A stretch of DNA of 64,000 nucleotides from Candidatus Omnitrophota bacterium (GCA_040753015.1 JBFMHM010000001.1:339157-403156); one strand, 5' to 3'. Counted from the first letter of the stretch, positions 11,391-51,082 are shown. Program-made: numbers and translations. Notes: a model not told the origin generated them from the letters alone.

Positions 11391-11405
11391 TTATCTCTAT
11401 GATTT

Positions 11406-17303: not shown

Positions 17304-18976
17304 TTTACCTCTTGAGTCTTTAGATACCTTAATGTATCTAGTGCAACATTTTTAAACACAGGCGCACAAACAACCCCACCATAATATTCTGGGTGAGGAT
17401 CATCAACAATAACTACTATGCTGATTTTTGGGTTATCAAAAGGCGCAAAACCAGCAAAGGTAGCAAAAAAATTTGAGTGTGAATATTTACCATTAATAGT
17501 TTTCTGGGCTGTGCCCGTCTTACCAGCAAGTTTAGCTTCTTTTGATTTAGCAAGCTGCGCTGTGCCATCTTCAACAACGCTAGATAATATATCTCTCATG
17601 CGCTTTGATGTATCCTGTGATATCACCTGCCTTATACAGATTGGTTCAAATTTTTTTAAAACTTTACCTTCTTTATCTTGAATCTGGCTTACTATATAAG
17701 GCCGCACAAGAAAACCACCATTTGCAATAACAGATATCGCGCTAGCAAGCTGTACTACCGTTACGCCAACTTCATGACCAATAGGAATTGCGCCAATAGA
17801 AGTTTTAGACCATCTAGATACAGGTATAAGCATCCCCGATATCTCACCTGGTAAATCAATGCCCGTAGGTTTCCCAAAACCAAAGGCTTGGGCATATTTA
17901 TATATAATTTGAGGGCCAAGCTTCTGTGCAATCTTAGTTACGCCAATATTGCTAGACTTAGCTATAACATCTCTAAAATTTAACCAACCATAAGGATGAA
18001 CATCATGCAGAATATGATTTCCTACTTTATAATTGCCATTCTCACAAAAAATACGATCTTTCTCGCTAAACACCTTCTCTTCTAACGCTGCAGATGCTGT
18101 GATGATTTTAAATACTGACCCAGGCTCAAACAAAGAACTAACTGCATAATCTTTCTTCATAGCACTAATAGTGCCGCTACTTTTGTTTAAATCATAAGTC
18201 GGCCTATTTGCTAAAGCTAGAATTCTACCAGTATAAGGATCCATGACAATTATGCTGGCGGCTTTTGCGTGATAACGTTTATAAGCCTTGTCGAGTTCTC
18301 TTTCTGCAATATATTGGATTACTTCATCAAGGTTCAAAACCAAACTCAATCCATCTTTTGCTTCTTCCAATCTTTTATAAATTGGTAATTGTTTCTGCCG
18401 AGCATCTCTTAGAATAATTGCCCAGCCAGATTCTCCTTTTAGATACTGATTATAGAAAAGCTCTGTTCCTTCTAGACCTTGATTGTCCAATCCAGCAAAA
18501 CCAAGGACATGGCTCATTAAATACGTATTAGGATAAGACCTTTTGCTTTCTTTTACTAATCCCAAAGCCTGAATGTTTAAATCTTTAATAGCAACTGATT
18601 CATCGAATGAAATCTTTCTTTTGAGCCAAACAAATCCCTTTTTTCTTCTTAGCTTTTCTTCTAAATTTTTTTCATCTATCTTTAGAATTGGGTTCAAAAG
18701 ACGCGCGGTTTGTTTAGGGTCTTTTAATTGGCGAGGATTTGCATAAAGAGAATCACAAGGAAGATTAATAGCCTGCGGGCGTAGATTTATGTCGAAAATT
18801 GTACCGCGCAGAGGAGAAATTTCAATATAATAATTCTGCTGCTTACGGGCAAGGTTAGACAGAAAATTCGATCTAAAAGCCTGTATAAAAAACAGGTAAA
18901 TACCTTCTAGAATAAATAAAGCTAAAAAAAATATAAAAACCCTTTTAAACCTAAGGGTAGTTTTTCTTAAATACAC
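17300..18976 (-). CDS. ftsI: Peptidoglycan D,D-transpeptidase FtsI (class B PBP)
   Basis: 558 aa. N-terminal TM, SxN (KSSNIG) and KTG (KTGTA) motifs. dcw position. Confidence 0.85.
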   Translation of the reverse strand: MYLRKTTLRFKRVFIFFLALFILEGIYLFFIQAFRSNFLSNLARKQQNYYIEISPLRGTIFDINLRPQAINLPCDSLYANPRQLKDPKQTARLLNPILKIDEKNLEEKLRRKKGFVWLKRKISFDESVAIKDLNIQALGLVKESKRSYPNTYLMSHVLGFAGLDNQGLEGTELFYNQYLKGESGWAIILRDARQKQLPIYKRLEEAKDGLSLVLNLDEVIQYIAERELDKAYKRYHAKAASIIVMDPYTGRILALANRPTYDLNKSSGTISAMKKDYAVSSLFEPGSVFKIITASAALEEKVFSEKDRIFCENGNYKVGNHILHDVHPYGWLNFRDVIAKSSNIGVTKIAQKLGPQIIYKYAQAFGFGKPTGIDLPGEISGMLIPVSRWSKTSIGAIPIGHEVGVTVVQLASAISVIANGGFLVRPYIVSQIQDKEGKVLKKFEPICIRQVISQDTSKRMRDILSSVVEDGTAQLAKSKEAKLAGKTGTAQKTINGKYSHSNFFATFAGFAPFDNPKISIVVIVDDPHPEYYGGVVCAPVFKNVALDTLRYLKTQEVK

Positions 18977-18992
18977 TTAAATTTTCCGAAAT

Positions 18993-19265
18993 TTATTGAT
19001 GGGGCTTCAAATTTACAGCAACAATTCTAACATCCGAAGGAATCTCAAAATTATCTTTAGCAATTTTGTCGCCAATTAATGTTAAAGATTCTATTCTTGC
19101 TTGATTATACCGTAAGTTTTTGTTTTCATCAAGAATATCATAATATTTTTTTAATGTACGCTCTTGCACATATGCGGCCTCGAAAATTTTTACTTGCTGC
19201 CAAACATATGTAATCGAAATTACAGTAATAAAAAAAATTATTGATATAAAACGTAATGGCCTCAT
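18993..19265 (-). CDS. ftsL: Cell division protein FtsL
   Basis: 90 aa single-TM coiled-coil protein between rsmH and ftsI. Confidence 0.6.
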   Translation of the reverse strand: MRPLRFISIIFFITVISITYVWQQVKIFEAAYVQERTLKKYYDILDENKNLRYNQARIESLTLIGDKIAKDNFEIPSDVRIVAVNLKPHQ

Positions 19266-20149
19266 AATCTTTCGGCTACCCTCAATTTTGCACTGCGCGA
19301 TCTAGGGTTATTGACAACTTCACTGTATCCAGGAACAAGCGGTTTTTTTGTCAAAATATTAACTAAGCCCGAATGCATAAGGTTTTTAAAATTTACCTTT
19401 ACGATCCTATCTTCTAAAGAATGAAATGATATAACGCAAATTCTTGCGCCTGGATTGAGTAGATTGATCGCCTTTTTTAATACTTCATCCAGAGCCTCTA
19501 ATTCCCTATTCACAGCAATACGTATTGCCTGAAAAGTTCTTGTTGCTGGATGAAGCCGTGAATAACCGTGATAACCAACTGCTTTCTTGACAATTTCGGC
19601 AAGCTCAACTGTTGTATCAATTGATTTCTTCTGTCTTTCATAAACTAAATATTTTGCAATACGGTTGTGCCGTTTTTCCTCTCCATAAATTTTTAAAATA
19701 TTTGATAGCTCGCTCTCGTTAAGATTATTAACTAAATCAAATGCGCTGATAAAACAACGTTTATCCATACGCATATCAAGAGGCCCGTCTGATTTAAAAC
19801 TAAAACCTCTTTCATCGGTTTCTAATTGATAACTTGAAATACCTAGGTCAAAAATGATTCCATCAACTTTTGCTATATTTAAATTTTTTAAAATAATATC
19901 TAAATTTTTAAAATCATCGTTAATTAACACTGTATTTTTAAAACTTTCTAGATGATGCTTTGCAAGCATTAAAGATTCATTGTCTTTATCGATACCTATC
20001 AATGTTCCTGTTGGGCTAATTTTTTCAAGTATTCCTCTTGCATGGCCTCCTAAACCAATAGTTGCATCAATAATTACCTGGCCTGTTTTTAGATTTAAAA
20101 ATTTTATAATTTCTTCATACATTACTGGATTATGTTTTGCTTTAATCAT
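19262..20149 (-). CDS. rsmH: 16S rRNA (cytosine1402-N4)-methyltransferase
   Basis: 295 aa. SAM-methyltransferase motifs (IDATIGLGGH). Follows mraZ. Confidence 0.9.
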   Translation of the reverse strand: MIKAKHNPVMYEEIIKFLNLKTGQVIIDATIGLGGHARGILEKISPTGTLIGIDKDNESLMLAKHHLESFKNTVLINDDFKNLDIILKNLNIAKVDGIIFDLGISSYQLETDERGFSFKSDGPLDMRMDKRCFISAFDLVNNLNESELSNILKIYGEEKRHNRIAKYLVYERQKKSIDTTVELAEIVKKAVGYHGYSRLHPATRTFQAIRIAVNRELEALDEVLKKAINLLNPGARICVISFHSLEDRIVKVNFKNLMHSGLVNILTKKPLVPGYSEVVNNPRSRSAKLRVAERL

Positions 20150-20157
20150 CTATGGCG

Positions 20158-20592
20158 TCATTCAATTAATTTTTCGGCAATCTGTTCAAAAGAACTTTGT
20201 GTATTTTTATAAAATTCATTCCAAGATTCTTTCGACCAAAACTCAATACGGTTAGAAACACCAACAATAACAATCTCTTTTTTTATTAAAGCATAATCTT
20301 TTAAATATTGAGGAATTAATATACGGCCTTGCTTATCTGCAACCACTTCAATAGCGCCAGAAAAAAATAACCTATTAAATTGTCGCGATTCTGACTTTGT
20401 AAAAGGCAGGGTTTTGAACTTTTGTTCCTGGCTTAACCACTCATTTTCAGAGAACATAAATAGACATCTATCTAGCCCTCTAGTTACAAAAAACTTCTCA
20501 ACAAAATTACTTTTGGCAACTTCTCTAATTCTAGAAGGCAAGACTAATCGGCCTTTTCTATCTATTGAATGTGAATACTCCCCATAAAACAT
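20158..20592 (-). CDS. mraZ: Transcriptional regulator MraZ
   Basis: 144 aa. Duplicated MraZ half-domains. First gene of the dcw cluster. Confidence 0.85.
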   Translation of the reverse strand: MFYGEYSHSIDRKGRLVLPSRIREVAKSNFVEKFFVTRGLDRCLFMFSENEWLSQEQKFKTLPFTKSESRQFNRLFFSGAIEVVADKQGRILIPQYLKDYALIKKEIVIVGVSNRIEFWSKESWNEFYKNTQSSFEQIAEKLIE

Positions 20593-30552: not shown

Positions 30553-30936
30553 CTATCGTTCTTTATATTTATCGCTTATATTCAATATGCTATTAATATT
30601 ATCGATTTCCTTTTTTAAATCGCTCGTCTTTACAATAAAACCTGAAGCATTAAATTTATTCGCTAGCTCAAAACGCTCTTCATTAGAAAATGCCGTAATG
30701 ATAAATACTGGCAAATTTTTATCATTCTGCCGGATTTTTTTTAATACAGTTAATCCATCGATATCGGGCATTAATATATCCAATAGAACTGCATCAGGTT
30801 TTTCTTTCTTAACCTTAGACATCCCATCTTTACCATTTAACGCCGTAACTACTTCATAGTTATTAGCCTCTAAGCGATTGCGTATTAATTCTAAAAAATC
30901 TGGTTCGTCATCTATGACTAAAATTTTCTTCTTCAT
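30553..30936 (-). CDS. Single-domain response regulator (CheY-like receiver only)
   Basis: 127 aa. The DD pair, phospho-acceptor D (LLDILMPDIDG), T and K-P are all present. Confidence 0.8.
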   Translation of the reverse strand: MKKKILVIDDEPDFLELIRNRLEANNYEVVTALNGKDGMSKVKKEKPDAVLLDILMPDIDGLTVLKKIRQNDKNLPVFIITAFSNEERFELANKFNASGFIVKTSDLKKEIDNINSILNISDKYKER

Positions 30937-30950
30937 AACTGCCTCCTGGT

Positions 30951-32360
30951 TTAGCGTTTGGCACGAACATATCTAGTTTGCTCCTTGTTGCCTTTTAAAT
31001 ATTCATAAGTCCCCACTAATTTTCCTATCGAAATAATCCAACGATATAATATAAACTCAAAAAAACTTAAAAATACTAAATGGCTTATGTATTGCACTCT
31101 AAATACTTTTTGGCATCTAATAAACGCAAGGATAGATAATAACGATATAAGTATTTGTGATAAAACTATAAGTGCTAAAAAAGTAATAAATATATTTACA
31201 TTTAGCGCACCTATTAACCATCCCCATACTACAAAGCCGATGCTTGCTATCTCAAAGAATACACCTAAGACCTCATAGAAAATAAAATACGGTAAAGTTA
31301 AAAACGCAAAACTATTGTATCTAGGATTACAGAACATATATTTATATTTCCAGACAGTTTCATTGGTCACCCGCTGCCAGCGATTTCGCTGTGAGATAAG
31401 AGAACGAATATTGCTCGGGCCTTCTGTCCACCCAACATTGAACGGAAGCATTATTATTTTTAAGTTTCTATTTTTATTTTTTGCAATATAATCATGCGCC
31501 CTAAATGTAAGCTCAATATCTTCGCAGGTAAAATCCGGAGAAAAACCACCCAATTCATATAAAATATCTCTTCTCCATATAGCAAATCCACCAGCGAGTG
31601 TTGGCATTGCATTATACCTACTCCAGGCAATCCGGTTTCCGATAAAAGAACGAATATATTCCAAATTCTGATAAGCTATAAGAGGATTATATGAAAATGT
31701 TTTTTCAACTACCTTGCCGTCTTTTATCTTTATCCCATTTGAAAGGCTAAAATAACTGCCGATGCCAATTATTCTTTCGGCATCTTTCTCAACTGAAGCC
31801 ATAATTTTAAGCAGAGAGTCTGGCTCGAGTACAGTATCCGCATCGATCACGCATACATAGTCATTTTTTGAAATATTAAGCCCAGCGTTTACTGCGCCGG
31901 CTTTTTTAGTCCCTTTTTCTTTAAAAACAACCCTGACATTTGGATAAGATTGGCTCTTCAATATCTCAATTACTCGCCCGTCTTTATAATGCTTTACATA
32001 TTGCATTTCGATTGCTTTTAGCTTAAGCACAGCATTTAATATATTGATTGTATTGTCTGTTGAACCATCATCAACAACTATAAGCTCAAAGTTAGGATAA
32101 TTAAGCCCTACAACCGATAATACTGAATCACGTATCCATTCTTCTTCATTATGAGCCGGAATAATTATAGTAATAGGAATACAAACTTTTGAAAGATATA
32201 CAAGCGAGTAATTTTCTTCTTGGTTTTCTTTAGCACGCTTTCCGCCCTCAATAAGGCCAACAATGGCTAAAAGCAGGTAAAAAAAAGTTAGAATAATAAA
32301 GTAGGCAAAAAATATTATAAATACAATATAAATAATTTTTGGCGTAAAGATGCTTTCCAT
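30951..32360 (-). CDS. Membrane-embedded processive family-2 glycosyltransferase (PgaC/IcaA/NodC/BcsA-like synthase)
   Basis: 469 aa. N-terminal TM, GT2 domain with DDGS.DNT, DAD and QRNRWQR (QxxRW) motifs, then C-terminal TM helices. Confidence 0.7.
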   Translation of the reverse strand: MESIFTPKIIYIVFIIFFAYFIILTFFYLLLAIVGLIEGGKRAKENQEENYSLVYLSKVCIPITIIIPAHNEEEWIRDSVLSVVGLNYPNFELIVVDDGSTDNTINILNAVLKLKAIEMQYVKHYKDGRVIEILKSQSYPNVRVVFKEKGTKKAGAVNAGLNISKNDYVCVIDADTVLEPDSLLKIMASVEKDAERIIGIGSYFSLSNGIKIKDGKVVEKTFSYNPLIAYQNLEYIRSFIGNRIAWSRYNAMPTLAGGFAIWRRDILYELGGFSPDFTCEDIELTFRAHDYIAKNKNRNLKIIMLPFNVGWTEGPSNIRSLISQRNRWQRVTNETVWKYKYMFCNPRYNSFAFLTLPYFIFYEVLGVFFEIASIGFVVWGWLIGALNVNIFITFLALIVLSQILISLLSILAFIRCQKVFRVQYISHLVFLSFFEFILYRWIISIGKLVGTYEYLKGNKEQTRYVRAKR

Positions 32361-33649
32361 TATAGTTCTTTAATCTCTTTTCTTCGTTTCTTTTCTACAT
32401 GTTCTATAAATGCCTTATCAAGCCCGCTAATTTCTTCTAGAATAATCCGGCCTTCTTCGGGAGTAAAACTATTCAAAGCTGTCTCTATGCTAAAATGCCC
32501 GCGCGCCTTAATAATATCATTTATGAGTTTTAATGTGCCCATTTTTTCAACACTAGTTCCGGATAAAATTAATTGTAGCAGCCGCGGCATATAACCAGAA
32601 TCATCTATTGCTTCAATAGACAAACGCTTAGCAAATTCATCCTGGCCATTAAATAAATTTTTAATATAAGGAAGCGCGGCTTCTATATTTTTTGCAAATA
32701 CCTCTCGAATACTGGCCAATACTGATAGAGAACCATCGTTAATAAGCTCTATAATCAAAGGGATAGAATCGCCTCCTAATAAATTAGATAATGCGCTTAC
32801 AGCATGCTCCCGCACAAGCCAAGAGTTATCTTTTAAACAATTAACAAGCGTATCTTTTGCATCTTTTTTACCAGAAAGGCCGATACAATCACAAACAGCA
32901 GCACGCACTTCATTATTCTCATCTTTAATTAGGCCTATTAATTTATCAATATGCCTTGCAGTTTTAAATTTAGAGAGCAGTCGTAAGGCCCATAGTCTTA
33001 CTCCGGGATTAGAATCATTAATTAATTCTATTACATCATTGACAATATCTACCGGAAATTCTTGTAGTACAGAAATTATTTTGTATCGCAGAGAAGGCTG
33101 CTTTTTGAGTGCCTCTAATAAAATTTTTGCGGAAGGCATACTTTTTATCTGCCCTAAAGCTATTATCGAAAAATAAGCTAAATCCTGATCCCTGGAAAGC
33201 ACTGCTTTCCTAAAGAGGCCCATATTAGAATCTACGCCGGCATACCCTAAACTTAAAATAGCTTCGATACGGCGCCACTTATTACGTGAAAATCTTGCAA
33301 TTTTTTCTATCTTTACTATCTTCTCTTTTGAGAGAAAAAAATTCTTCAATAACTGTTTCTCAGACTCGTTAAAAAAAACTATGTCCCGATTTTTATTAGT
33401 TATAGCATCTAGAAATTGTTTAGGTGTTAAATTAACCCTAACATTAGAATACACCCCTGCCTCTTTACGTGGATTAGCCAAAATTAGTTCATAAACATGT
33501 TTCTTGACTTTTAATAAAACATTGCCTTTTTTAATATAAAAAAATTCTTTAAATAATGCATAAAATATAATTAATACAGCTATAAAAAGGACTGCTCCCA
33601 ATAAAATTAAATCAATAATAAAAATATAACCTTCATAATAATTATACAT
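32360..33649 (-). CDS. Membrane-anchored HEAT-repeat (PBS-lyase-type) protein
   Basis: 429 aa. N-terminal TM followed by repeated ..VR..A..AL.. HEAT-like units. Start codon overlaps the stop of the synthase gene. Confidence 0.55.
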   Translation of the reverse strand: MYNYYEGYIFIIDLILLGAVLFIAVLIIFYALFKEFFYIKKGNVLLKVKKHVYELILANPRKEAGVYSNVRVNLTPKQFLDAITNKNRDIVFFNESEKQLLKNFFLSKEKIVKIEKIARFSRNKWRRIEAILSLGYAGVDSNMGLFRKAVLSRDQDLAYFSIIALGQIKSMPSAKILLEALKKQPSLRYKIISVLQEFPVDIVNDVIELINDSNPGVRLWALRLLSKFKTARHIDKLIGLIKDENNEVRAAVCDCIGLSGKKDAKDTLVNCLKDNSWLVREHAVSALSNLLGGDSIPLIIELINDGSLSVLASIREVFAKNIEAALPYIKNLFNGQDEFAKRLSIEAIDDSGYMPRLLQLILSGTSVEKMGTLKLINDIIKARGHFSIETALNSFTPEEGRIILEEISGLDKAFIEHVEKKRRKEIKEL

Positions 33650-33650
33650 T

Positions 33651-34481
33651 TTAGAACTTAATGGCTAGACTAAAGTTAGCGCCTTTCTTAAAAAATTTTG
33701 GCCTTTCCATACTATTTGTATAACCTGCCCTAAAATTCACTCCTTCGCAAAGCTTGAGAGTAAAACCAGTATTTATGATATAGCCCAGCTCTTCGCTCGC
33801 ATCAAAACCATAAATATCATATAGACGCGAACCGTAACTAACACCTACATCAAATTTTAAAAAACTAGTAAGGGCAAAATCTCCCCTTAAGCTGCCAAAG
33901 AAAGAAAGCCCTCTGCCTTCTATTGCGGACGTACCATAAAAACCGCTAATATAACTATCGCCAAAATAATAAATTAACCCAGGCAATACTATATGAGTAT
34001 TCCCGCTCGAATAACCTTTAAATGTATAACCAAGCTGACCATATAAATTTTTTATAATCTTATGCCCATATTCTGCCAAAAATTGTGACTTATAAATAAA
34101 ACTCAGATTCCAGCCGCCGCCGCCTTCAAAATGTACGTATGAATCTTTAAAACTTAAATAAGCACCCATACTTGCAATATAATCTTTTTGATGAATACGT
34201 TTTAATTGAGATGAAGAAAAATAACCACGTATGTTTTTATGGCCATAACCTATTGTTCCTGTTGTCTCAATCCAGCGCCCTTTTGTTGCCCCTTGCAATA
34301 CCCTATTGGGCTCATAAAAAACATTGTAATAAACTTTATCTTTTTCTTCTATCACATCTTTTACAACAACAGCTGGCGGCACAATTTCTCTTAAGCGCCT
34401 TTCTGTATCAGTATCAGCGGCATAAAGATATAAATACATAAATAAAAATAATAAAATAGATAAAATAAATTTTTTTACCAT
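33651..34481 (-). CDS. Putative outer-membrane beta-barrel protein
   Basis: 276 aa. Signal peptide, alternating amphipathic strands, and a C-terminal ...SLAIKF with terminal Phe typical of OMPs. Confidence 0.45.
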   Translation of the reverse strand: MVKKFILSILLFLFMYLYLYAADTDTERRLREIVPPAVVVKDVIEEKDKVYYNVFYEPNRVLQGATKGRWIETTGTIGYGHKNIRGYFSSSQLKRIHQKDYIASMGAYLSFKDSYVHFEGGGGWNLSFIYKSQFLAEYGHKIIKNLYGQLGYTFKGYSSGNTHIVLPGLIYYFGDSYISGFYGTSAIEGRGLSFFGSLRGDFALTSFLKFDVGVSYGSRLYDIYGFDASEELGYIINTGFTLKLCEGVNFRAGYTNSMERPKFFKKGANFSLAIKF

Positions 34482-34873
34482 TATTTAGTTTTATATTTTT
34501 CGGCTATATAGATAGCATTGGTAATGCTATCTATTTCTTTCTTTAGATCAGCTGTCTTAACAATAAATCCTGTTGCGTTATATTTACTGGCCGCATTAAA
34601 CCTTGCTTCATTAGAAAAAGCAGTAACGATAAATATAGGAACTTTCTCATCTTTAATTCTTATCTGGCGAAGAACCTCTAAGCCATCAATTCCTGGCATA
34701 AGTATATCAAGTAGTATCGCATCTGGTTTTTCAACGCTAGCCTTCTCAATCGCATCCTTGCCATTAGTCGAACTAACAACCTGATAACCAACTGATTCTA
34801 GACGTAATTTAAACATCTCAATAAAATCTATCTCATCATCAACTAATAAAATTTTCTTTTTCTTTTCGGCCAT
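34481..34873 (-). CDS. Single-domain response regulator, paralog of 30553..30936
   Basis: 130 aa. About 55-60% identical to the other receiver, with the same ...GFIVKT.DLKKEID... C-terminus. Confidence 0.8.
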   Translation of the reverse strand: MAEKKKKILLVDDEIDFIEMFKLRLESVGYQVVSSTNGKDAIEKASVEKPDAILLDILMPGIDGLEVLRQIRIKDEKVPIFIVTAFSNEARFNAASKYNATGFIVKTADLKKEIDSITNAIYIAEKYKTK

Positions 34874-34884
34874 TAATATTCTCC

Positions 34885-35874
34885 TTAAATTTTACCCAGC
34901 TCTTGCGGATGTGTTTTAAAATAAAGATACATTTTTCTTAAGATATCATTCATTTTTATAACCGGTATTCTACCTGCAATCTTTTTAAGTTTTGTAAGAT
35001 CGGGGATACGTTTTTTTATATCCTGAAAATTCTTGCCATAATATTTTTCATACGGCTCAAATACTATTTTCGAAGAGCTTTTTGTTATTTTTTTTATAGC
35101 ATAAGCTAAATCTCTTATAGATATTTCATTAGTACTTCCTAAATTGATTACCTGGCCATCTGCTTTTTTACAATTAGTAAGTTTTATAATTATATCTATT
35201 GCATCATCAATATATGTAAAACAACGAGTCTGTGTCCCATCTCCATAAATATGAATAGGCTTATTTGTTAGCGCGCTCTTAAAAAATCGCGGAATAACCA
35301 TACCGTAATAACCTATCTGGCGCGGACCAATAATATTGAACAGTCTTACGATTACAACCGATAGCTTTCTTTCTCTATGATAACCAATTGCTAAAAATTC
35401 ATCGAGTAATTTTGAACAAGCATAACTCCAGCGATTAATATCCGGCGGACCAATAATAACATCACTACTTTCAGAAAAAGGATAAACTTTAGATTTTCCA
35501 TATACCTCTGAAGTGGAAGTTAACACTACCTTTACGCCATGGCTTGAAGCATATTTAAAAACCAGGTTTGTCGCAACGCTATCATATATAATTGTTTCTA
35601 GCGGTTTTTCTACAACATTTTTTACTCCGACTGTTGCAGCTAAATGATAAATAAGATCGCAATCTTCTATGGCCTTTTCTAATAATGTTTCATCAGTAAT
35701 CGAGCCTCTGATAATAGTTAATTTTTTGTTATGTTTAATATCCTCAATATTATCGGCTCTGCCGGTTGAAAAATCATCTAAGATACATACACTTTTTCCC
35801 ATTTTTAATAACATTCTTACAAGATGAGAACCAATAAATCCTGCTCCGCCTGTAACTAATATATTATTTTCCAT
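34885..35874 (-). CDS. NAD-dependent nucleotide-sugar epimerase/dehydratase (UDP-glucuronate decarboxylase / UDP-glucose 4-epimerase family)
   Basis: 329 aa. GGAGFIGSH Rossmann motif and YxxxK. Confidence 0.8.
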   Translation of the reverse strand: MENNILVTGGAGFIGSHLVRMLLKMGKSVCILDDFSTGRADNIEDIKHNKKLTIIRGSITDETLLEKAIEDCDLIYHLAATVGVKNVVEKPLETIIYDSVATNLVFKYASSHGVKVVLTSTSEVYGKSKVYPFSESSDVIIGPPDINRWSYACSKLLDEFLAIGYHRERKLSVVIVRLFNIIGPRQIGYYGMVIPRFFKSALTNKPIHIYGDGTQTRCFTYIDDAIDIIIKLTNCKKADGQVINLGSTNEISIRDLAYAIKKITKSSSKIVFEPYEKYYGKNFQDIKKRIPDLTKLKKIAGRIPVIKMNDILRKMYLYFKTHPQELGKI

Positions 35875-37205
35875 TATACTCTTCTTTCTATGATGTCATT
35901 GATCTCGTCTCTAATTTTCATACTATCATGCTGAATAAGATCTATTTTGCTTGAAAGATCGGCGACGATAACCTTTGCTTTTGTAATGTTAGAAATTTTT
36001 TTTAGATTGCCTATATCTACGGGATATTGATCCTTTTGGGCATATCTAACTAATTCCTTCTTAGGCAATTTACTATTATCTGCCAACAATATATAATCTA
36101 GATAATCTCCGCCTAAGTATTTTATAATTTCTTCTATATGATTTAATGAGTTATAATTTGAAGTCTCCCCGGGTTTAGTCATTAAATTACAAATATAAAT
36201 TTTTTTGGCCTTCGTATTTACAACGGCTTTACGAATATCTTTTATTATAAGATTAGTTATAATGCTTGTAAAAAGATCCCCCGGGCCTATCGTTATAAAA
36301 TCAGCATTTATGATGGCGGAATATGCATTAGCATCGCAAGGCACCTGTGGGTTATGCCAAATCTTTTTTATACGTAAATTACGTGCTCTGCCTCTGCATG
36401 AATCAATATTGCTTTCTCCTTTAATAATTTTACCGTTCTCAATAAGAGCATATAATACCGCCTCTTCATCTGCAACAGGATAGACAATACCGTTTAAATT
36501 CAACAACTCGCTAAGAGCGCTTACTGCTTCTGGCATAGAACTTTTTATATTAGTTAAAGCTGTAAGCAATAAATTCCCTAGGCTATGGCCATTTAGGCCG
36601 CCTCCCTTATCGAAACGATACTGCATAAGCTCGTTCATAATAACTGGTGCATTGGAAAGTGCAACAAGATTACGCCGTATATCTCCGGGCGGAAGTACTC
36701 CAAAAGATGCCCTTATTCTTCCAGAAGACCCACCATCATCTGTTGTACTAACTACTGAAGTAATAAGTGACTGCGGTATGGTTTTAATCCCCAATAATAG
36801 ATTGAAAAGCCCACTGCCGCCTCCGATACAAGTAATTCTTATCTTCTTATTAAATATTGCGTAGATCCTTAAAGCTAGCTCCCGCCGGCTGCAAGGCTTA
36901 AAACAATAATCCAAAATGCCATATTTTTTTGACAACTCCACAAACTTCAAATTCTTCTTAACTGAAAAAATGATAGAAGGTATTTTGGATCGCTTAATAA
37001 TTTCTAATACTTTCCAAAATAAACTAATATTATCTATATAAGAATCTTGATTAATAACGGCTATATCGAACTTTTTTGATTTTAATTTTGATTCAATTTC
37101 TGCATATTTATAAGCTGCGTCGGCTTCCAGTAGAAAACCTAAAAGCATCTGTTTAATTTCATTAACAAAACTTGTCGAACCAACTAATAAAATTTTTTTA
37201 TACAT
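35874..37205 (-). CDS. Fusion of a degenerate receiver-like domain with a YvcK/CofD-family (UPF0052) domain
   Basis: 443 aa. The first ~120 aa form a CheY-like fold that keeps K-P but lacks the acidic DD pocket. It is followed by GGGSGL....DDGGSSGR, typical of YvcK/gluconeogenesis-factor/CofD-like proteins. Confidence 0.65.
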   Translation of the reverse strand: MYKKILLVGSTSFVNEIKQMLLGFLLEADAAYKYAEIESKLKSKKFDIAVINQDSYIDNISLFWKVLEIIKRSKIPSIIFSVKKNLKFVELSKKYGILDYCFKPCSRRELALRIYAIFNKKIRITCIGGGSGLFNLLLGIKTIPQSLITSVVSTTDDGGSSGRIRASFGVLPPGDIRRNLVALSNAPVIMNELMQYRFDKGGGLNGHSLGNLLLTALTNIKSSMPEAVSALSELLNLNGIVYPVADEEAVLYALIENGKIIKGESNIDSCRGRARNLRIKKIWHNPQVPCDANAYSAIINADFITIGPGDLFTSIITNLIIKDIRKAVVNTKAKKIYICNLMTKPGETSNYNSLNHIEEIIKYLGGDYLDYILLADNSKLPKKELVRYAQKDQYPVDIGNLKKISNITKAKVIVADLSSKIDLIQHDSMKIRDEINDIIERRV

Positions 37206-40200
37206 TACCTTAAAGGGATTGTAAATGTAAAACGTGTACCTTTGCCAAATTCACTTTCTGCCCAAATTTTACCACCGTGTAACTCAATAAGGCCTTTTGC
37301 AATAGAAAGCCCTAGGCCTGTGCCTTTTTCTCCCGGGCCGGCAACTCGGTCAAATTGTTGAAATTTACCAAACAACTTAGGTAAATTTTCTTTAGCTATG
37401 CCCACACCGGTATCCTGAATAAAGCATTCTACACTACTGTCCTTCAAATAAACCCCCGCCTCAATAAATCCTTTTTGGGTAAACTTTATAGCATTGTTTA
37501 TTAAATTAACAAAAACTTGTGTCATTTTATCAGAATCAATAAAAACATCTATGCTATCTACTGGAATATTTAATCTTAATTCTAACCCTGCTTCCTTAAT
37601 TTTCGCATCAAAAGAAGCAGTAATTTTTCTAATTAAATCATTTAGATTAATTTTTTCCTTTTTTAATTCAATCCTGCCGGCTTCGATTTTAGAAATATCC
37701 AACATATTATCTATAATCCTGGCAAGCCTATCCATATTATCTTTTGAGATCGTAAGCATCTTTTTTTGCTGTTCGTTGATTTGTCCGGGGATCTCGTCTA
37801 AAACAAGGCTAATTCCTTCTTTTGTAATTGAAAGAGGAGTCCTTAGCTCGTGAGAAACCACAGAAACAAAATCCGTCTTTAATTGATCTATTCTTTGCAA
37901 TTCCCTATTTTTTTCTTCAAGTTCTTGCCTTGTCTTTACAAGATCAGAAATATCTTTAGCCAAATGCACCGAACCTCTAATTCCGCCATTATCGTCAAAT
38001 ATCGGGGATGTCGTTATAAGAAGCGGTATTCCAAGGACAGGGTCATTCACCTCTTCTGTATGCGCTTTATTATCAAGCATTGTTTTTGAATGCGGACAAT
38101 CAGGCCATGGTTTATCAGTCTTATGCACGATTTGATAACACTTTTTGCCAATCACATCTTTGGAGCTTAATTTAAAAATATCAAGGAATGCCCTGTTAAC
38201 CCTTACAATTCGATGCTCCTTATCTAAGATAAAAACTATATCGGTTATAGAATCAAAGGTGTCCTGCCACTCTTGAGCTGCTTTACTTATAATTTCTGAT
38301 TTTGTTTTTTCCTCAGTAATATCCCTTACTGTTGCCTGTAAGATTTTTTCTCCTTTTAATTCTATGCGGGTTAACAAAACTGTAGCAAAAAACTCTTTTC
38401 CGTCTATACTCCTATGTACCCATTCAAAATAATTTGTTCCTTTTTCTAAAGCTATAGCCATCATTTCCTGCGCTTTTACAACAGATAGCTTGCCATCAGG
38501 CTGGTACTTCGGTGATAAATCTGCCGGGCCCATTGATTTAAATTCTTCTTCATCTTTACACCCAAACAGCTTTATCGCAGCTGGATTCCCTGAAAGAAAT
38601 CCTTTTGCCGGACTAACTGTCATTATCGCATCCCATGAATATTCAACAAGAGCTGCCAAACGGGACATTTTATCTTCAGTTATACGCCGGGCAGTTACAT
38701 CTCGAAAAACTAAAATTACGCCTATAATATTTTTATTATCGTCCAAAATAGGCGCAGCGCTATCATCAATCGGCACGCTTGTACCATCTTTTTTAACTAA
38801 TAAAGTATGGTTACCTAAACCAACGATTACTTTATCCCGTAATACCTTATAAACGGGGCTTTCTACTTTTTCTAACGCACCTTCTTGTATAATATTAAAA
38901 ACTGTTTCGATTTTCTTTGCTTTAGCAGCCTCTTGATCCCAGCCTGTTAGTTTTTGGGCAACAGGATTTATAAACGTAATCAAACCATTGTTATCTGTAG
39001 CTATAACCGCATCCCCTATACTTCGAAGCATAGTTGAAACTAATTTTCTGTTTTCATCCAAGACACTCTCGGTTTTTTTCCTAACCATAATTTCTCTATT
39101 AAGATTATCTATTGAAGTAGTTTTATGCTCTATGTTATTTGCCATATCATTAAACATATTACCCAGGGCTTCGATTTCATCGCCTGTTTTTAATTTAATA
39201 CGATGCTCAAAGTTACCGCGGCTAAAATTCATAACCCCTTGAGATAACGCTAGCATCGGTTTAATAAAAATCCTACTTAAAATCATACCTGTAAGTATAG
39301 CGATTAAAATAGCTATAGCCATTACAAACCACAAAATAATCATTAATTTTGTTAAAGGCAAAAATGCCTCTTTCTTATCTTGGCTTATAAAAATCCACCA
39401 GTTTATACCATTTTCTTTTAAAATTTTGGCATCTATCTTGGTAAAAGCTAAGATTCTTTGGTCTTGATGTAAAGAATATTTACTTGACAGTATAAATCCT
39501 TCTGGTTGTGTAACTATTGCCTGAAATTCATCTTTACCGGTAATTTTTTCTGTGAATGGCCTCACTCCGGGATAAAAAATAATATCACCGTTGCTATCAA
39601 CTATAAATGCATGCCCGGTTTTGCCAATGTTAAGTTCAGCCACTGCCTGAAAAAACCGCTCAATAGGAAACACTGCTTTACAAACACCAATAAAAGTATC
39701 GTTATCATACACAGCCATAGCGACAGTAACTCCTAATGACTCTGTAGATTCATCAAAATTAATATCTCCTACATAGATACCTTTTGCGTAGGCCTTTTTC
39801 CACCACTCCTCATCTGCTTGATAAAAATCAGTTGTCTTGCCTGAAGCGCCAACTAAACCACCAAATTTATCAGTGATAAAAAATTCCTCTACTTCTAAGT
39901 TGGTATCTATAAAATCGGCGATATGCTCTGTACTAATATAATTTATTAAATATTCTTTTAATAATGGGCTATCCTCTGTGGCATTAATCCATTGGCGGTC
40001 TCTTTCAAGAAAATAAGCACTTATATTTTCTTGATCCATATTGCGGTATTGCTCATTAGCCTTTTTTATCTCCTCTATCACTAATGGCCTTAAAATAAAC
40101 TGCTGCATCTCAGATATTTCTTGATTAAAATTCCTTAAAAATGCACTACTGGATAATTTTGATATTTCTAAGAAATTATCTTTAATTGAATTAACTATTG

Positions 40201-40375
40201 AATAATAAACACGGTTAAATACTATAGAAAAGGTAAGGATTAAAGTAATGGTAGTTAATGAAATAAGAGAAAAAGTTATTTTACGCCTAAAACCGCCCTT
40301 CAATCTTATTTCATCATTATTCTTCTGCATAATCTTCCTTTGAAAACATTTAACTTTTAATATCAAATAAATCAA
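37205..40375 (-). CDS. Multi-sensor histidine kinase (TM-periplasmic sensor-HAMP-PAS x3-HisKA-HATPase)
   Basis: 1056 aa. H-box SHELRTPL, plus G1/G2 boxes at the C-terminus. The probable true start is an internal Met (MQKNNDEI, ~40330), which removes the overlap with the upstream gene. Confidence 0.85.
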
Positions 40376-43362: not shown

Positions 43363-45330
43363 TCATTCGTAACGCAAGGCTTCAATTGGATCAAGGCGGG
43401 CTGCTTTCCGCGCAGGCCATAAACCAAAAACTATACCTACAATTAATGAAAATACTGTTGAAAGAATTATTGAAAATACAGATACTTTAACTGCCCAGCC
43501 AGTAAACACAGTAATCAAGCTCGCAATGCCCCATCCTAATAAAACACCTGATACACCGCCGATAAACGACATTAATATTGCCTCAATAAGAAACTGGATC
43601 ATAATATCTTTATTATTTGCACCTATTGCCTTCCTAAGGCCAATCTCTCTCGTACGCTCTGTTACAGACACAAGCATTATATTCATAATCCCTATACCGC
43701 CTACTAAAAGCGAAATAGCTGCGATCGCCCCAAGCAATAAAGACATTGTTTTAGTTGTTGCCTCTAGAGTCTTTTTTATATCGGCCATATTGCGCACCTG
43801 AAAAGAATCTTCATCATCTTTACTAAGATGGTGTTGTTTTATTATAATTTTTGAAATTTCTTCTTGAGCATCATCTAATAAATTAGGGCTTGCCGCCTCT
43901 ACAAAAATTGCATCAATATATTCTTTACCAAAAACACGATACATTGCACTAGTAATTGGAATTACAACTATGTCATCTTGATCATGAAAAGCACTGGCTC
44001 CTTTTTCTGGTAAAACACCTATAACCCTAAAGTTAAGCAGGTTGATTTTTATCGTTGCGCCTACAGGGTTTTCGCCGCCAAATAGCTCTCTAACAATAGT
44101 CATTCCTACAACCGCAACCTTCTCGCGCATCTTCACTTCCTGTTCAGTAAAAAACCTGCCAATGACTGGCTCGGATGCGCGCATTTTAGCATAATTTACG
44201 CCATCGCCTTCTACTTGCGTATTCCAATTTTTATCTTTATAAACCACCTGCCCGCGGCCAACTACCGAAGGAGAGACACGAAGAACCTTATCACTTCTTT
44301 CTATCGCCGCTACATCATTAAAAGTAAAACGGGTAACTGCGCCTGCTTCAAGTGCCATACCATGCACCTTACTAGAACCAGCCCTAACCAATAAAAGGTT
44401 TGAACCTAAAGATGCAAGTTGTTTTTCTATTGTTTCTTTTGCGCCTTGCCCTAAAGCAAGCATAGCAATAACTGCGGTTACACCAATGAGAATCCCTAAT
44501 ATTGATAAAAAAGAACGTAGCTTATGGGAAATAATTGCGAATATTGCTTGCCGTATATATTCCAAAAATTTTACATTCCCGCCAATGACATAAGGTCTAG
44601 ATAATACAGAATTAACCAGGCTATCTTCTAAAGAAACGATTTCAGATATTTTTATATTATTTTGCGCTTGACTATCTGAAATAATCTCCCCATCCCGCAT
44701 ATGAATTATTCTCTTTGCATAAGCTGCAATTTCGTTTTCATGTGTTACGATTACAACGGTCTTGCCTTTATCATTCAATTTTTTTAATATCGAAATTATT
44801 TCCTCTTTACTCTTTGAATCAAGATTACCTGTTGGTTCATCAGCAAATATTATTAACGGTTCATTAACTAATGAACGAGCAATAGCGACTCTTTGTTGTT
44901 GGCCGCCGGACATTTCGCTTGGACGATGGTTCATTCTGTCTTTTAAGCCAACCACTGTAAGCTCAACCTGCGCTTTTTCTCTTAAATGCCTCTTGCCTGC
45001 ATAAATCAAAGGCAGTTCAGCATTCTCTAGAGCAGTAAATCTTGGTAATAGATGAAACTGCTGGAAAACAAACCCAACGATCCTGTTCCTTAAGTTTGCC
45101 AATTCATTATCGGAAAGCCTGCTTATCTCTTTTGTCCCCAAATAATATAAGCCAGAGTCCGGACGATCAAGCAATCCTAAAATATGCATTAAAGTTGATT
45201 TACCCGATCCAGATGCTCCCATAATCGCAACAAATTCGCCTTCGTGGATTTTCAAAGATACATTAGAGAGCGCCTTAACTTCTACCTCGCCCATTTGATA
45301 AGACTTAGATATATTTTTTAATTCAATCAT
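43363..45330 (-). CDS. macB: MacB-type ABC transporter (fused ATPase + FtsX-like permease)
   Basis: 655 aa. N-terminal ABC domain (GASGSGKST, LSGGQQQRVAIARAL, DEPT), a periplasmic domain, and four C-terminal TM helices. Confidence 0.85.
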   Translation of the reverse strand: MIELKNISKSYQMGEVEVKALSNVSLKIHEGEFVAIMGASGSGKSTLMHILGLLDRPDSGLYYLGTKEISRLSDNELANLRNRIVGFVFQQFHLLPRFTALENAELPLIYAGKRHLREKAQVELTVVGLKDRMNHRPSEMSGGQQQRVAIARSLVNEPLIIFADEPTGNLDSKSKEEIISILKKLNDKGKTVVIVTHENEIAAYAKRIIHMRDGEIISDSQAQNNIKISEIVSLEDSLVNSVLSRPYVIGGNVKFLEYIRQAIFAIISHKLRSFLSILGILIGVTAVIAMLALGQGAKETIEKQLASLGSNLLLVRAGSSKVHGMALEAGAVTRFTFNDVAAIERSDKVLRVSPSVVGRGQVVYKDKNWNTQVEGDGVNYAKMRASEPVIGRFFTEQEVKMREKVAVVGMTIVRELFGGENPVGATIKINLLNFRVIGVLPEKGASAFHDQDDIVVIPITSAMYRVFGKEYIDAIFVEAASPNLLDDAQEEISKIIIKQHHLSKDDEDSFQVRNMADIKKTLEATTKTMSLLLGAIAAISLLVGGIGIMNIMLVSVTERTREIGLRKAIGANNKDIMIQFLIEAILMSFIGGVSGVLLGWGIASLITVFTGWAVKVSVFSIILSTVFSLIVGIVFGLWPARKAARLDPIEALRYE

Positions 45331-45333
45331 ACC

Positions 45334-46287
45334 TTACCTTCTCCTTGCTCCGAAAGGAGAAAACGGGCTTGCAGTCGAATTCTTTTTAGAAGAATCAATT
45401 TTTTTTATTGTAACAATTATCACATCATCCTCACTAAGGCCAGATAATACTTCTGCATCCTTATCATTATATATGCCTATTTTAACAAATTGTTTAACAG
45501 GTTCTTTATCGCTATATTTCTTAAGAAAAACGAAGTCTCCGTCTTTATCTTTGTGTAAGGACTCAAGCGGTATTATCAAAATATTATTATGAATCTCTGT
45601 AATAAAACTTACTTCTGCATTCATACCTGAACGAAAAAAATCTGGGATTTCTTCCGGTATAAGGTCAACTTCATATATAGTAACATTATTAACAGTCTTA
45701 GATTCAAAATATATATGTTCGACTTGCGCACCAATTTTAACATCGGGATAAGCATCAATGCTAATCTCTGCTTTCTGGCCAAGCTTAACCTTACCAATAT
45801 CAGTTTCATCGATTTCGGCGCGTACTATCAAATAATCGGATAATACAATCACCGCATCTTGTGTTGTAACAGTTTGGCCCACTTGAGTAGTAGCCACAAT
45901 AACTTCTGCGTCAATAGGCGCAAGTAATTCTATTGGCCTATAAACTTCCTGCCAATATTTTAGCTCTTTTTCACCTTTTGCCCTTGCGGCATCTATAAGA
46001 GCGGCTCTTTCGGTTGAACTCATAAGAGCAATGACTTGTCCAATCTTTACTTTATCTCCCTCTTTAACCAAAATACTTTCAATACGGCCATTAACCGGCG
46101 GCTTTATCTCGAGGCGGTTTTTGGGTAATACCGCAGCTGTTGTTGAAACAATATTGCTTATAGTTCCAATTCTTGGTTTTACTTCTTTAGTTGTCTCCTG
46201 GGAATCCGTCTTCGGCCTTGATTTTATTAAAATAACTGCTGCTATAACCACAACTAAAATTAAAAAGGGAAATATTTTCTTATTCAT
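45334..46287 (-). CDS. macA: Periplasmic adaptor (HlyD/MacA membrane-fusion family)
   Basis: 317 aa. N-terminal anchor, lipoyl/beta-barrel MFP architecture. Adjacent to macB. Confidence 0.75.
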   Translation of the reverse strand: MNKKIFPFLILVVVIAAVILIKSRPKTDSQETTKEVKPRIGTISNIVSTTAAVLPKNRLEIKPPVNGRIESILVKEGDKVKIGQVIALMSSTERAALIDAARAKGEKELKYWQEVYRPIELLAPIDAEVIVATTQVGQTVTTQDAVIVLSDYLIVRAEIDETDIGKVKLGQKAEISIDAYPDVKIGAQVEHIYFESKTVNNVTIYEVDLIPEEIPDFFRSGMNAEVSFITEIHNNILIIPLESLHKDKDGDFVFLKKYSDKEPVKQFVKIGIYNDKDAEVLSGLSEDDVIIVTIKKIDSSKKNSTASPFSPFGARRR

Positions 46288-47560
46288 ATTCTAACGTTTC
46301 TCCTTTCGCTTGAATCCAATTAGCTTCGGCTAATAAGGCGCTTGCTTGAATATCTAAAAATGCCTTTTTTGACCTAACAAGGTTATCTTCAATAATAATC
46401 CAATTATCAAAAGAAATGAATCCTGTAGAATATTGCGCTTGAGCAATCTTGGATCGTTCTTCATTTGCAATTAAATACTTTCTTTCAACCTCAACCAAAT
46501 CTAGCGCATCTTGTAATTCAGCCCATGCCTGCTCAAGCGCTACAATAATCGAATCTTCTGTACTCCTTTGATTTTCTTTTAATTGGCGTAAAAAAGCCTT
46601 TGCTTGTGCAACTTGAGCCATTCTCAATCCACCTTCGAATAAAGGCAAAGACAATGCAACACCTGCATTCCATTGCCTATTAGGCGCAGGCCAATGAGCC
46701 CCTGTTTTATTGATGCCGGCATTGCCAGAAATCGTAGGAAAAAAACTTCCATATGTAGACTTTAAGCTAAACCCTGCAGAATCAACTTGAGCAATTGCTT
46801 CTTTAAGCGAAGGATTATTTTTAGCAATATTCTCAAAATTTGGTTTTTGTTTCGCAGAATCTTTTACTTCAAAATTACCATCTACACGAATAGGTTTAAA
46901 TTCTAACCAACCCATTTCTTTAATCAACTCTCGTTGGGCAACTTTAAGCTCTCTCTCTGCCTGGACAATATTGTAATTTGCACTTGCAGCATCAGCTTCG
47001 GCTGTCAATAAAGCGCCTTTATGTTCTAGTCCAGAAAGATACTGGAGAGTTATCAATTTAAGGTCTTTTTTTCTAATATCATAAATTTCCTGTGCAATAC
47101 GCAGCATCTCTTGTGCTGTCAATAAATTAATGAAAGCACTGCGCAGCTTAAATCTTACCGCAGCAGACGTAAAACGAAAATTTTCTTGGAAAGCTTTTAT
47201 GGTTTCTGTGGCAGCCCTAACACTATTAATTGTTTTTAGGCCGTCAAATAATAACTGTGAAGCTGTCAAGCCATAAGCAAAGGTATTGGTCGTCCTGCTA
47301 TTTGCGCTTGTAGAACTAGGAGCTGACTCTGCCCTAGCGGCATTAACATTAGTATTAAGTTGTGGATATAAAGTGCTTGCTGTAATCGTTTTTGCTGCTT
47401 GAGATTGCCTAACTTGTTCCTCTGCGGCAATCAAATCAGGATTATTTTTAGCTGCCTCCTTAATACAATCGTGCCAGGTAAGCATCTCTTCGGCAATTAC
47501 GCGATTATGCAATGAACATACTATTATAACAATTAATAATTTTAAAAAAAAATTATTCAT
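46280..47560 (-). CDS. TolC-like outer-membrane efflux channel
   Basis: 426 aa. Signal peptide and two OEP repeats. First gene of the macAB operon. Confidence 0.75.
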   Translation of the reverse strand: MNNFFLKLLIVIIVCSLHNRVIAEEMLTWHDCIKEAAKNNPDLIAAEEQVRQSQAAKTITASTLYPQLNTNVNAARAESAPSSTSANSRTTNTFAYGLTASQLLFDGLKTINSVRAATETIKAFQENFRFTSAAVRFKLRSAFINLLTAQEMLRIAQEIYDIRKKDLKLITLQYLSGLEHKGALLTAEADAASANYNIVQAERELKVAQRELIKEMGWLEFKPIRVDGNFEVKDSAKQKPNFENIAKNNPSLKEAIAQVDSAGFSLKSTYGSFFPTISGNAGINKTGAHWPAPNRQWNAGVALSLPLFEGGLRMAQVAQAKAFLRQLKENQRSTEDSIIVALEQAWAELQDALDLVEVERKYLIANEERSKIAQAQYSTGFISFDNWIIIEDNLVRSKKAFLDIQASALLAEANWIQAKGETLEYE

Positions 47561-48061: not shown

Positions 48062-48307
48062 AATGTTTTACCCTTTATTAAATTAAGTATATCTTATTTA
48101 AATTAATAAAACAAGGAATATATAAGTTCATGCTGAATGCATACGGCTGTCCGCCCCAAAGCCCATTATTCCCCGGACAACCGTCGCTCCGGCAAGATTA
48201 AGCTATCTGGCTTTAATGACGATCTGCTCATATAAGGCTTTGCTTTTGTATTGTCACTTTCACCAACAAATATTCGCAATAACATTCCTTCTTCGGGCAA
48301 TTTCATT

Positions 48308-48700
48308 TCACACCACCTTAAATAAATTCATCAATCCCTTTGAAGCGATATATCCGGCAAATACTGCGCCTATACTCAATACCACGGACAAAGCCGTATT
48401 CATAACGGCGATCCTGTATTCGCCATCCCTCATAAGGTTAAATGTCTCGAGGCTAAAAGTAGAGAACGTCGTGTATCCGCCAAGAATGCCTATGAATACA
48501 AACATCCTCATATTTGGCGAGAAGTTGAAACGGTCAATGATTCCCCACAAAAAACCTATCACCAATGAACCAGTTACATTCACAACAAGAGTGCTGATTG
48601 GAAAAACACCGTTTGAAAAGCGGTAATCAAGCCCGCCCATAACATAACGCAGAATTGTTCCGATCGCACCGCCTAATCCTAAAATAAAAAACCTCAACAT
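48308..48700 (-). CDS. crcB: Fluoride ion channel CrcB/Fluc
   Basis: 130 aa, 4 TM. GGxxGT(L)xRY N-terminal motif and GxxGGxTTFSTF second motif. Confidence 0.85.
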   Translation of the reverse strand: MLRFFILGLGGAIGTILRYVMGGLDYRFSNGVFPISTLVVNVTGSLVIGFLWGIIDRFNFSPNMRMFVFIGILGGYTTFSTFSLETFNLMRDGEYRIAVMNTALSVVLSIGAVFAGYIASKGLMNLFKVV

Positions 48701-49819: not shown

Positions 49820-49897
49820 TGGGGTGGGTGACGGGATTCGAACCCGCGGCACCTTGAGCCACAGTCAAGCGCTCTACCGGGCTGAGCTACACCCACC
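49820..49897 (-). tRNA. tRNA-His (anticodon GUG) with encoded G-1 and CCA
   Basis: Cloverleaf folds by hand. Acceptor GUGGGUG/CACCCAC. Anticodon loop CUGUGGC. An extra 5' G pairs with discriminator C73. T-loop UUCGAAU. 3' CCA is encoded. Confidence 0.85.
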
Positions 49898-50976: not shown

Positions 50977-51050
50977 CGTCCCCGGCCTGATTCGAACAGG
51001 CGACCCTCGGCTTAGAAGGCAGATGCTCTATCCAGCTGAGCTACGGGGAC
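50977..51050 (-). tRNA. tRNA-Arg (anticodon UCU)
   Basis: Acceptor GUCCCCG/CGGGGAC. Anticodon loop CUUCUAA. T-loop UUCGAAU. One U-C mismatch in the anticodon stem. Confidence 0.75.
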
Positions 51051-51082
51051 AGTTTTTTTAACTACCAAAACAAAAAATTAAA

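Follow-up and report, generated by a model that had tools for sequence, protein, structure and literature searches.

A stretch of 64,000 nucleotides from a Candidatus Omnitrophota bacterium (GCA_040753015.1 JBFMHM010000001.1:339157-403156), referred to here as the window, carries an operon of eight tightly packed, translationally coupled genes (40375-30553), all on the minus strand. Toward its downstream end lie genes for an outer-membrane-type beta-barrel, a membrane-anchored HEAT-repeat protein and a family 2 glycosyltransferase (GT2), flanked by two stand-alone CheY-like receivers, RECx-A and RECx-B. Upstream stand a short-chain dehydrogenase/reductase (SDR) resembling UDP-glucuronate decarboxylase (UXS), a YvcK-like protein with a pseudo-receiver, and a sensor kinase. 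In order of transcription, with the basis of each assignment in parentheses, the genes are:

37205-40375, minus strand: sensor histidine kinase, first gene of the operon (Pfam)
35874-37205, minus strand: YvcK/CofD-like protein with an N-terminal pseudo-receiver (TIGR01826, Pfam CofD)
34885-35874, minus strand: extended SDR of the UXS/ArnA type (PDB sequence match, motifs)
34481-34873, minus strand: RECx-A, stand-alone receiver of 130 amino acids (Pfam Response_reg, 1.3e-25)
33651-34481, minus strand: outer-membrane-type beta-barrel of 276 amino acids (AlphaFold2 model, weak YaiO match)
32360-33649, minus strand: inner-membrane-anchored HEAT-repeat protein (Pfam HEAT_2, 9e-27)
30951-32360, minus strand: GT2 synthase (Pfam Glycos_transf_2, 8e-30, and Chitin_synth_2)
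30553-30936, minus strand: RECx-B, last gene of the operon, receiver of 127 amino acids (Pfam Response_reg, 3e-28)

TAATG overlaps occur at the RECx-A/barrel, HEAT/GT2 and kinase/YvcK junctions. RECx-A overlaps the start of the barrel gene by 1 nt, the barrel and HEAT genes are 1 nt apart, and the 14-nt gap between GT2 and RECx-B contains AGGAGG. Because the genes remain tightly packed upstream to 40375 and a 166-nt spacer separates RECx-B from the downstream trx gene, we take the eight genes to form one operon. A first-pass annotation of the window had described five genes at 30553-34873 and called the central three translationally coupled. All five open reading frames were recovered where it had placed them, each on the minus strand, and the TAATG overlaps and gaps of 1-14 nt agree with coupling; the interval was too narrow, as the operon continues with the SDR, YvcK-like and kinase genes. 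The G+C content of the operon is close to that of the window (33.6% versus 33.7%), so the block appears to be native, and 100% matches to the HEAT protein, barrel and GT2 are present among the proteins of metagenome-assembled genomes (MAGs) at NCBI. Within the operon, an Rfam scan found no riboswitch or other RNA family, and promoter and terminator scans returned scores no better than those of shuffled sequences.

How widely is this arrangement shared? A motif of the HEAT-protein family was found at 26 loci in 185,579 species genomes, and a metagenome scan added 46. One hidden Markov model (HMM) per component was then scanned against all open reading frames of the fetched loci, of which 60 non-redundant loci (numbered with the prefix L) were left after removal of duplicates. 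These roughly 60 loci, nearly all from Omnitrophota, share the order barrel-HEAT-GT2, which is kept wherever the contig has room, save in L046/L014, where the order is barrel-RECx-HEAT-GT2, and in L020, where an SDR gene placed after HEAT creates the sole exception to HEAT-GT2 adjacency. Two layouts predominate. RECx-barrel-HEAT-GT2 is found in 31 loci and in the window, often with kinase-REC-YvcK-REC::SDR before it or REC::SDR (a receiver-SDR fusion) after it; SDR-barrel-HEAT-GT2, lacking RECx, is found in 16 loci, the more divergent ones. An SDR gene adjoins the block in most loci, including those devoid of RECx, and the barrel stays beside the HEAT-GT2 pair at HEAT-protein identities down to about 28%. 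Barrel, HEAT protein and GT2 are thus a conserved unit with which a UXS-like SDR and RECx co-occur, and the neighborhood comparison bears out the view of the first-pass annotation that relatives should share the block. The module is restricted mainly to one uncultured phylum. Databases label its parts "glycosyltransferase", "HEAT repeat domain-containing protein", "hypothetical" or "YaiO family". The annotation had not recognized the architecture as a described system; likewise, a full-text literature search covering YaiO, HEAT repeats, PgaC, synthase-dependent systems and Omnitrophota exopolysaccharide found no description of the module.

The GT2 carries the motifs DDG97, DAD173, ED280 and QRNRW324 with hydrophobic segments on either side of the catalytic domain, in agreement with the QxxRW motif and flanking transmembrane helices noted earlier. 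Its AlphaFold2 model (predicted local distance difference test, pLDDT, 84.1; predicted template-modeling score, pTM, 0.84) begins with a long membrane helix at the N-terminus, continues with a GT-A domain and an interface helix following QRNRW, and closes with a C-terminal helical bundle. When the model was compared with the PDB by Foldseek, the hyaluronan synthase (HAS) of a Chlorella virus ranked first (E 2e-13, TM-score 0.59-0.65 in both directions), followed by BcsA, Xenopus HAS1 (XlHAS) and chitin synthases (Chs1); a non-processive archaeal mannosyltransferase, PcManGT, came only twelfth and covered less of the query. Because the best matches of the model are hyaluronan synthase and BcsA, the enzyme can be classed as a processive synthase, and by predicted fold and motifs it is a membrane-embedded synthase-translocase. 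Identity within the GT2 family runs from 58 to 80% among the 120 best matches, and the residues neighboring QRNRW do not vary. Two other identities were considered and rejected. The best NCBIfam match, TIGR03937 (PgaC_IcaA), reaches 106.3 bits in three fragments where the cut-off is 422.3, which rules out identity with the PgaC equivalog. A dolichol-phosphate-type transferase, which the first-pass annotation had set against its processive reading, is not borne out, the best folds being hyaluronan synthases, BcsA and chitin synthases.

The second member of the unit, annotated from the outset as a 276-residue outer-membrane barrel, is modeled with 14 strands (pLDDT 81.5, pTM 0.76). A cleavable-looking signal peptide at its N-terminus is followed by a 25-residue linker of low confidence, and the chain ends in ...AIKF, with a C-terminal F. 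The best TM-score, up to 0.64, is to OmpG, a monomeric porin of 14 strands. The window protein matches Pfam YaiO (PF19413/TIGR04390) below the gathering score (4.7e-4, 20.7 bits against 23.9), whereas in the barrel family as a whole 24 of 36 proteins match it, the best at 5.7e-10, and some relatives are named YaiO family at NCBI; a comparison of the barrel profile with E. coli YaiO by hhalign gave no significant match. Lumen-facing residues are conserved more than lipid-facing ones (0.75 versus 0.66); G, S, Y and charged residues abound among them, and their net charge is not strong. On these grounds the protein is a probable, remote member of the YaiO family of outer-membrane beta-barrels, and we propose it as the candidate exit pore for the polysaccharide. 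Known polysaccharide porins have 16-18 strands.

The HEAT protein begins with one hydrophobic helix, continues with a non-repeat region that contains an invariant NKWRRIEA, and ends in about 150 residues of 31-residue repeats of the PBS-lyase/alphaRep type. HEAT_2 (PF13646) matches three stretches with 93.6 bits against a gathering score of 27.7, and between residues 203 and 350 the profile strongly matches repeats of the alphaRep and PBS-lyase types. The family has a sharp boundary: 66 homologs, nearly all labeled Omnitrophota, are found at 32-59% identity, after which the score falls from 214 to 79 bits. The N-terminal 200 residues have only 111 matches among 1.84 billion representatives; those that are not fragments are mostly about 400-430 amino acids long and align from residue 1. 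The first match outside the family, P0067, was rejected as a relative of the module and is a chemotaxis-operon protein. In a Thermodesulfovibrionales MAG, a 656-residue HEAT-repeat protein is encoded between cheW and cheR (L034, 6001-7971) in an operon that reads CheA-CheW-MCP-CheW-HEAT-CheR-CheB.

On which side of the membrane does the solenoid lie? In all 39 homologs compared, about 5 K/R residues fall within the 15 residues after the helix and about 0.1 before it, and the N-terminus has none of the positively charged n-region typical of a signal anchor. Under the positive-inside rule, which is well established, the protein is therefore predicted to be N-out/C-in with a cytoplasmic solenoid, uniformly across the family. 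A solenoid so placed would not bridge the periplasm and would be no substitute for a tetratricopeptide repeat (TPR) scaffold. The first-pass annotation, which had proposed a membrane-anchored HEAT protein in the place of that scaffold, is upheld on the anchor helix and the repeats and loses the scaffold role.

RECx-A and RECx-B are 60% identical over 126 residues, at the upper end of the 55-60% estimated earlier. Both retain the acidic DD pair, the phospho-acceptor D, the T and the K, all of which are conserved in 20 RECx sequences, and both score well with the RECx HMM (225 bits for RECx-A, 233 for RECx-B). By sequence, then, they are CheY-like single-domain receivers with a full phospho-acceptor set and no output domain. 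The 20 sequences share TAFSNEERF...KFNASGFIxKT, and conservation among them peaks in beta4-alpha4-beta5 (residues 78-104), the face that receivers commonly use for contact with partners. In L035, the closest relative of the window, the upstream receiver shares 78% identity with RECx-A and the downstream one 80% with RECx-B, which also has 73% identity to the second RECx of L018; the duplication therefore predates the split between the window and L035. Receivers on both sides of the block occur only in these two loci, the common layout being a single upstream receiver, so that bracketing by twin receivers, put forward earlier as a feature of the system, is not one. The related proposal of phosphorylation-based control through the receivers fares better, as a dedicated receiver family does travel with the block; the weight placed on the twin pair is what falls away. 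In a lineage labeled Planctomycetota (L002/L003, 4113-7172), the receiver's place before the block is taken by a 1019-residue Ser/Thr kinase fused to an FGE-sulfatase domain.

Of the three upstream genes, that for the kinase would supply a phosphodonor and that for the SDR a substrate. The sensor kinase has dCache, HAMP, three PAS, HisKA and HATPase domains and an H-box SHELRTPL (Pfam and translation); its true start may be an ATG that lies 15 codons past the TTG listed. A similar kinase core adjoins RECx in L011, L019, L009, L010, L022, L035 and other loci, and the kinase is likely, from its sequence, to be the phosphodonor for the receivers. Several operons, those of L001 and L018 among them, pair a single kinase with three to five receivers. 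None of the receiver domains of the operon carries a DNA-binding output by Pfam or NCBIfam. The YvcK-like protein scores 311 bits with TIGR01826 (cut-off 196) and 2.3e-86 with Pfam CofD; its N-terminal domain of about 115 residues is receiver-like (a weak Response_reg match, 0.0024, over residues 17-114) and has no acidic pocket. Proteins of 436-441 residues with the same pseudo-receiver recur in L009, L010, L013, L015, L022 and L047. NCBIfam names the YvcK family UDP-GlcNAc-binding, and in Bacillus YvcK is linked to the supply of cell-envelope precursors.

The best PDB sequence match of the SDR is human UXS1, a UDP-glucuronate decarboxylase (1.4e-46), with which the motifs STSEVYG, YxxxK and RxFNxxGPR align; its Glu and Arg are typical of the decarboxylase branch. 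With the curated model PRK11908 the enzyme reaches 165 bits, the cut-off being 294. As curated scores fall below cut-off and no UDP-glucose dehydrogenase gene (ugd) lies nearby, a pentose-type donor is only a lead, though the enzyme likely, judging from its sequence, supplies the substrate of the synthase. In at least nine loci (L001, L004, L009, L010, L013, L015, L018, L022, L047) and one further locus the SDR has a canonical, phosphorylatable receiver fused to its N-terminus. The fusions of L001 (10714-12096) and L004 (10667-12049) are 460 amino acids long, and their SDR halves are 66-69% identical to the window SDR. Such a REC::SDR protein would be a response regulator with a nucleotide-sugar enzyme as its output, tying precursor supply to the same phosphorelay. 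The window SDR has no receiver domain while RECx is duplicated, but RECx-B was rejected as a replacement for the lost receiver: it is a paralog of RECx-A, only 38-39% identical to the SDR-fused receivers (35-41% for RECx as a whole). Among other loci whose SDR seems to be without a receiver, the two that extend far enough downstream of GT2 (L008, L037) have no second RECx there.

How does the module compare with known synthase-dependent systems? These share a receptor for cyclic diguanylate (c-di-GMP) and an export arm of TPR plus barrel. Of five usual features, the module has two, the synthase and the barrel, and is without c-di-GMP receptor, TPR scaffold and periplasmic modifying enzyme. None of the eight proteins contains a PilZ, MshEN, GGDEF or GAF domain (Pfam, NCBIfam), as the first-pass annotation had held for the c-di-GMP receptor; none matches TPR (Pfam); and no periplasmic deacetylase, lyase, hydrolase or epimerase is among them (Pfam, NCBIfam), the sole sugar enzyme being the cytoplasmic SDR. 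In L001, a gene for a 116-residue PilZ-domain protein lies directly upstream of RECx (6303-6653), and c-di-GMP may serve as an input to certain versions of the module, though not found in the window operon. PgaABCD of E. coli and the Bcs cellulose system likewise combine, in one operon, an inner-membrane processive GT2 (D, DxD, ED, QxxRW) with an outer-membrane barrel. Unlike them, the window operon has no PgaD/PilZ c-di-GMP receptor, TPR, periplasmic deacetylase or hydrolase, or BcsB, and has a predicted cytoplasmic HEAT subunit and CheY-like receivers instead; the barrels of PgaA and BcsC have 16 strands, and the one here has 14 in the model. Class I hyaluronan synthases (Chlorella virus, vertebrate) are of similar size, form their own channel and match the GT2 over about 470-490 columns. 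Identity to them is only 16-18%, however, and whereas they act alone in a single membrane, the GT2 has conserved HEAT, barrel and SDR partners. The nearest known pairing of a barrel with a GT2 in the absence of TPR is the cryptic yaiO-yaiX-yaiP-yaiS cluster of E. coli K-12, in which the small, TPR-less YaiO barrel is encoded beside the membrane GT2 YaiP, to which the GT2 profile aligns with 98.6% probability. That cluster has no HEAT protein, receivers or SDR and contains an acyltransferase pseudogene and a deacetylase.

For the HEAT protein, parallels must be sought further afield. Yeast chitin synthase III pairs the processive GT2 Chs3 with a membrane-tethered cytoplasmic alpha-solenoid activator, Chs4/Skt5; Chs4 is eukaryotic and built of Sel1-type repeats, and its likeness to the HEAT-GT2 pair is by analogy only. 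For contact with a receiver, the working model is provided by Myxococcus xanthus, where the HEAT-repeat protein Cpc7 interacts with the single-domain response regulator CheY7 (PMC11514114). As in the Omnitrophota operon, the genes for a HEAT protein of the PBS-lyase type and for a CheY-like receiver go together. Cpc7 is a soluble protein of a chemosensory operon that controls development and not a glycosyltransferase, so that the likeness lies in the type of repeat.

We propose that the operon encodes a lineage-specific machine for polysaccharide synthesis and export under phosphorylation control, a reading to which we give a probability of about 0.6. It keeps the core of the first-pass annotation, which had seen here the logic of synthase-dependent secretion governed by phosphorylation in a form not previously described. 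The SDR would make the donor nucleotide sugar, or one of them, possibly a UDP-glucuronate-derived pentose. GT2 would polymerize this sugar and push the chain across the inner membrane, and the small YaiO-type barrel would pass it through the outer membrane with no periplasmic TPR scaffold. The HEAT protein would serve as a cytoplasmic adaptor tethered to the membrane beside the synthase. Control would be post-translational: the dCache/PAS kinase would phosphorylate RECx and, in relatives, also the SDR-fused receiver, and phospho-RECx would use the conserved alpha4-beta5 face to dock on either the HEAT solenoid or the synthase, switching polymerization on or off. A more specific version is tentative and, taken whole, doubtful. 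In it, a c-di-GMP-independent, HAS-like synthase switched by phospho-RECx and HEAT would polymerize a pentose-containing sugar (from UDP-xylose or a 4-keto-pentose), exported by a 14-strand YaiO barrel in the absence of a scaffold; if true, it would be the first function for the YaiO family and for bacterial membrane HEAT proteins.

Several points weigh against the proposed machine. Product and regulation are both read wholly from the genes. By Pfam and NCBIfam the operon encodes no periplasmic partner, which leaves the crossing of the periplasm by the chain without explanation, and the barrel, with 14 strands in the model, is smaller than the known polysaccharide porins. The predicted topology of the HEAT protein comes from one rule, that of positive charge inside. 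The window holds no ugd gene, and the substrate of the SDR thus finds no support in its context. Since 16 loci are without RECx, the receiver is an add-on and not a core part, and the HEAT protein, GT2, SDR and kinase stand as undiscriminated candidates for its target.

Could the HEAT protein be the missing periplasmic link? It would then replace the TPR domains of PgaA, BcsC, AlgK and PelB and bridge synthase to barrel, with the flanking receivers jointly gating polymerization. HEAT and TPR repeats both form alpha-solenoids, the HEAT gene sits between the barrel and synthase genes, and no other periplasmic component is encoded in the operon. The periplasmic placement is contradicted by the K/R bias in 39 of 39 homologs and by the want of a signal-anchor n-region, and joint gating by the confinement of the flanking pair to the window and L035 and by the RECx-less loci; we regard this alternative as highly improbable. 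A different objection concerns the product. GT2 might make a short oligosaccharide, a glycolipid or a periplasmic or envelope glycan, in the manner of NodC or of ceramide and lipid glycosyltransferases, with the barrel a general or uptake porin that happens to share the operon. Faint Glyco_transf_21 and NodC matches of GT2, the rank of PcManGT in the fold search, the likeness of the barrel to the general porin OmpG and the Bacillus role of YvcK can all be cited in its favor. We nevertheless consider it unlikely, for the best full-length matches of GT2 are processive synthases with a transmembrane channel, QRNRW and its neighbors are invariant, and an unrelated porin would hardly be kept beside the synthase pair over so wide a range of HEAT-protein divergence.

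Where in the pathway does the phosphoryl group act? RECx could be a phosphate sink or shuttle that tunes the output of the kinase to REC::SDR and to the pseudo-receiver::YvcK protein, so that control would fall on precursor supply only, with the HEAT protein a scaffold by which the SDR is recruited to the synthase. Many relatives have REC::SDR fusions, no accessory gene is tied to the block more constantly than the SDR, also where RECx is missing, and the surplus of receivers over kinases in several operons fits a sink. Yet the alpha4-beta5 surface of RECx is strongly conserved and distinct from that of the SDR-fused receivers, as their low mutual identity reflects, and RECx lies almost always directly upstream of the barrel and HEAT genes and is translationally coupled to them; moreover, the window has duplicated RECx beside an SDR that has no receiver to be tuned. 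This makes the sink quite unlikely, and we retain a phosphorylation-controlled polysaccharide machine as our working interpretation.

The surroundings of the operon show that the window is core chromosome and not an island. A division and cell-wall cluster occupies 2754-20592 on the minus strand, with mraZ, mraW, a PBP transpeptidase and one Mur ligase confirmed at 16161-20592 and further minus-strand open reading frames without annotation extending down to 2754. Upstream of the operon lies a tripartite efflux set of MacB-type ABC transporter, HlyD-type adaptor and TolC-type outer-membrane factor (43363-47560, minus strand). Two proteins of the AsmA/DUF748 type are encoded at 54276-56774 (plus strand, 832 amino acids) and 49907-50959 (minus strand); the TolC-type and AsmA-type genes fit a diderm envelope. 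Among the sizeable plus-strand genes, only that for the 832-residue AsmA-type protein matches a family, the 136-residue plus-strand open reading frame at 48216-48626 matching none; the AsmA-type gene lies where the window is richest in AT (G+C 0.26 at 54001-56000). A 314-residue protein with an IS200-like Y1 transposase domain (48784-49728, minus strand) adjoins a tRNA gene at 49823-49896. Two further tRNAs are found at 50977-51157 and a tmRNA at 63117-63522.

What would such a machine mean? If the proposal is correct, machines of the same kind as the known synthase-dependent systems would have a second regulatory logic, built on a HEAT subunit, dedicated receivers and receiver-fused sugar-nucleotide enzymes. 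It would also give YaiO-type barrels, including that of the cryptic yaiO-yaiP genes of E. coli, their first functional context. The Omnitrophota are uncultured, and since many of them are very small or live in association with hosts, a regulated polymer on the cell surface could matter for their attachment.

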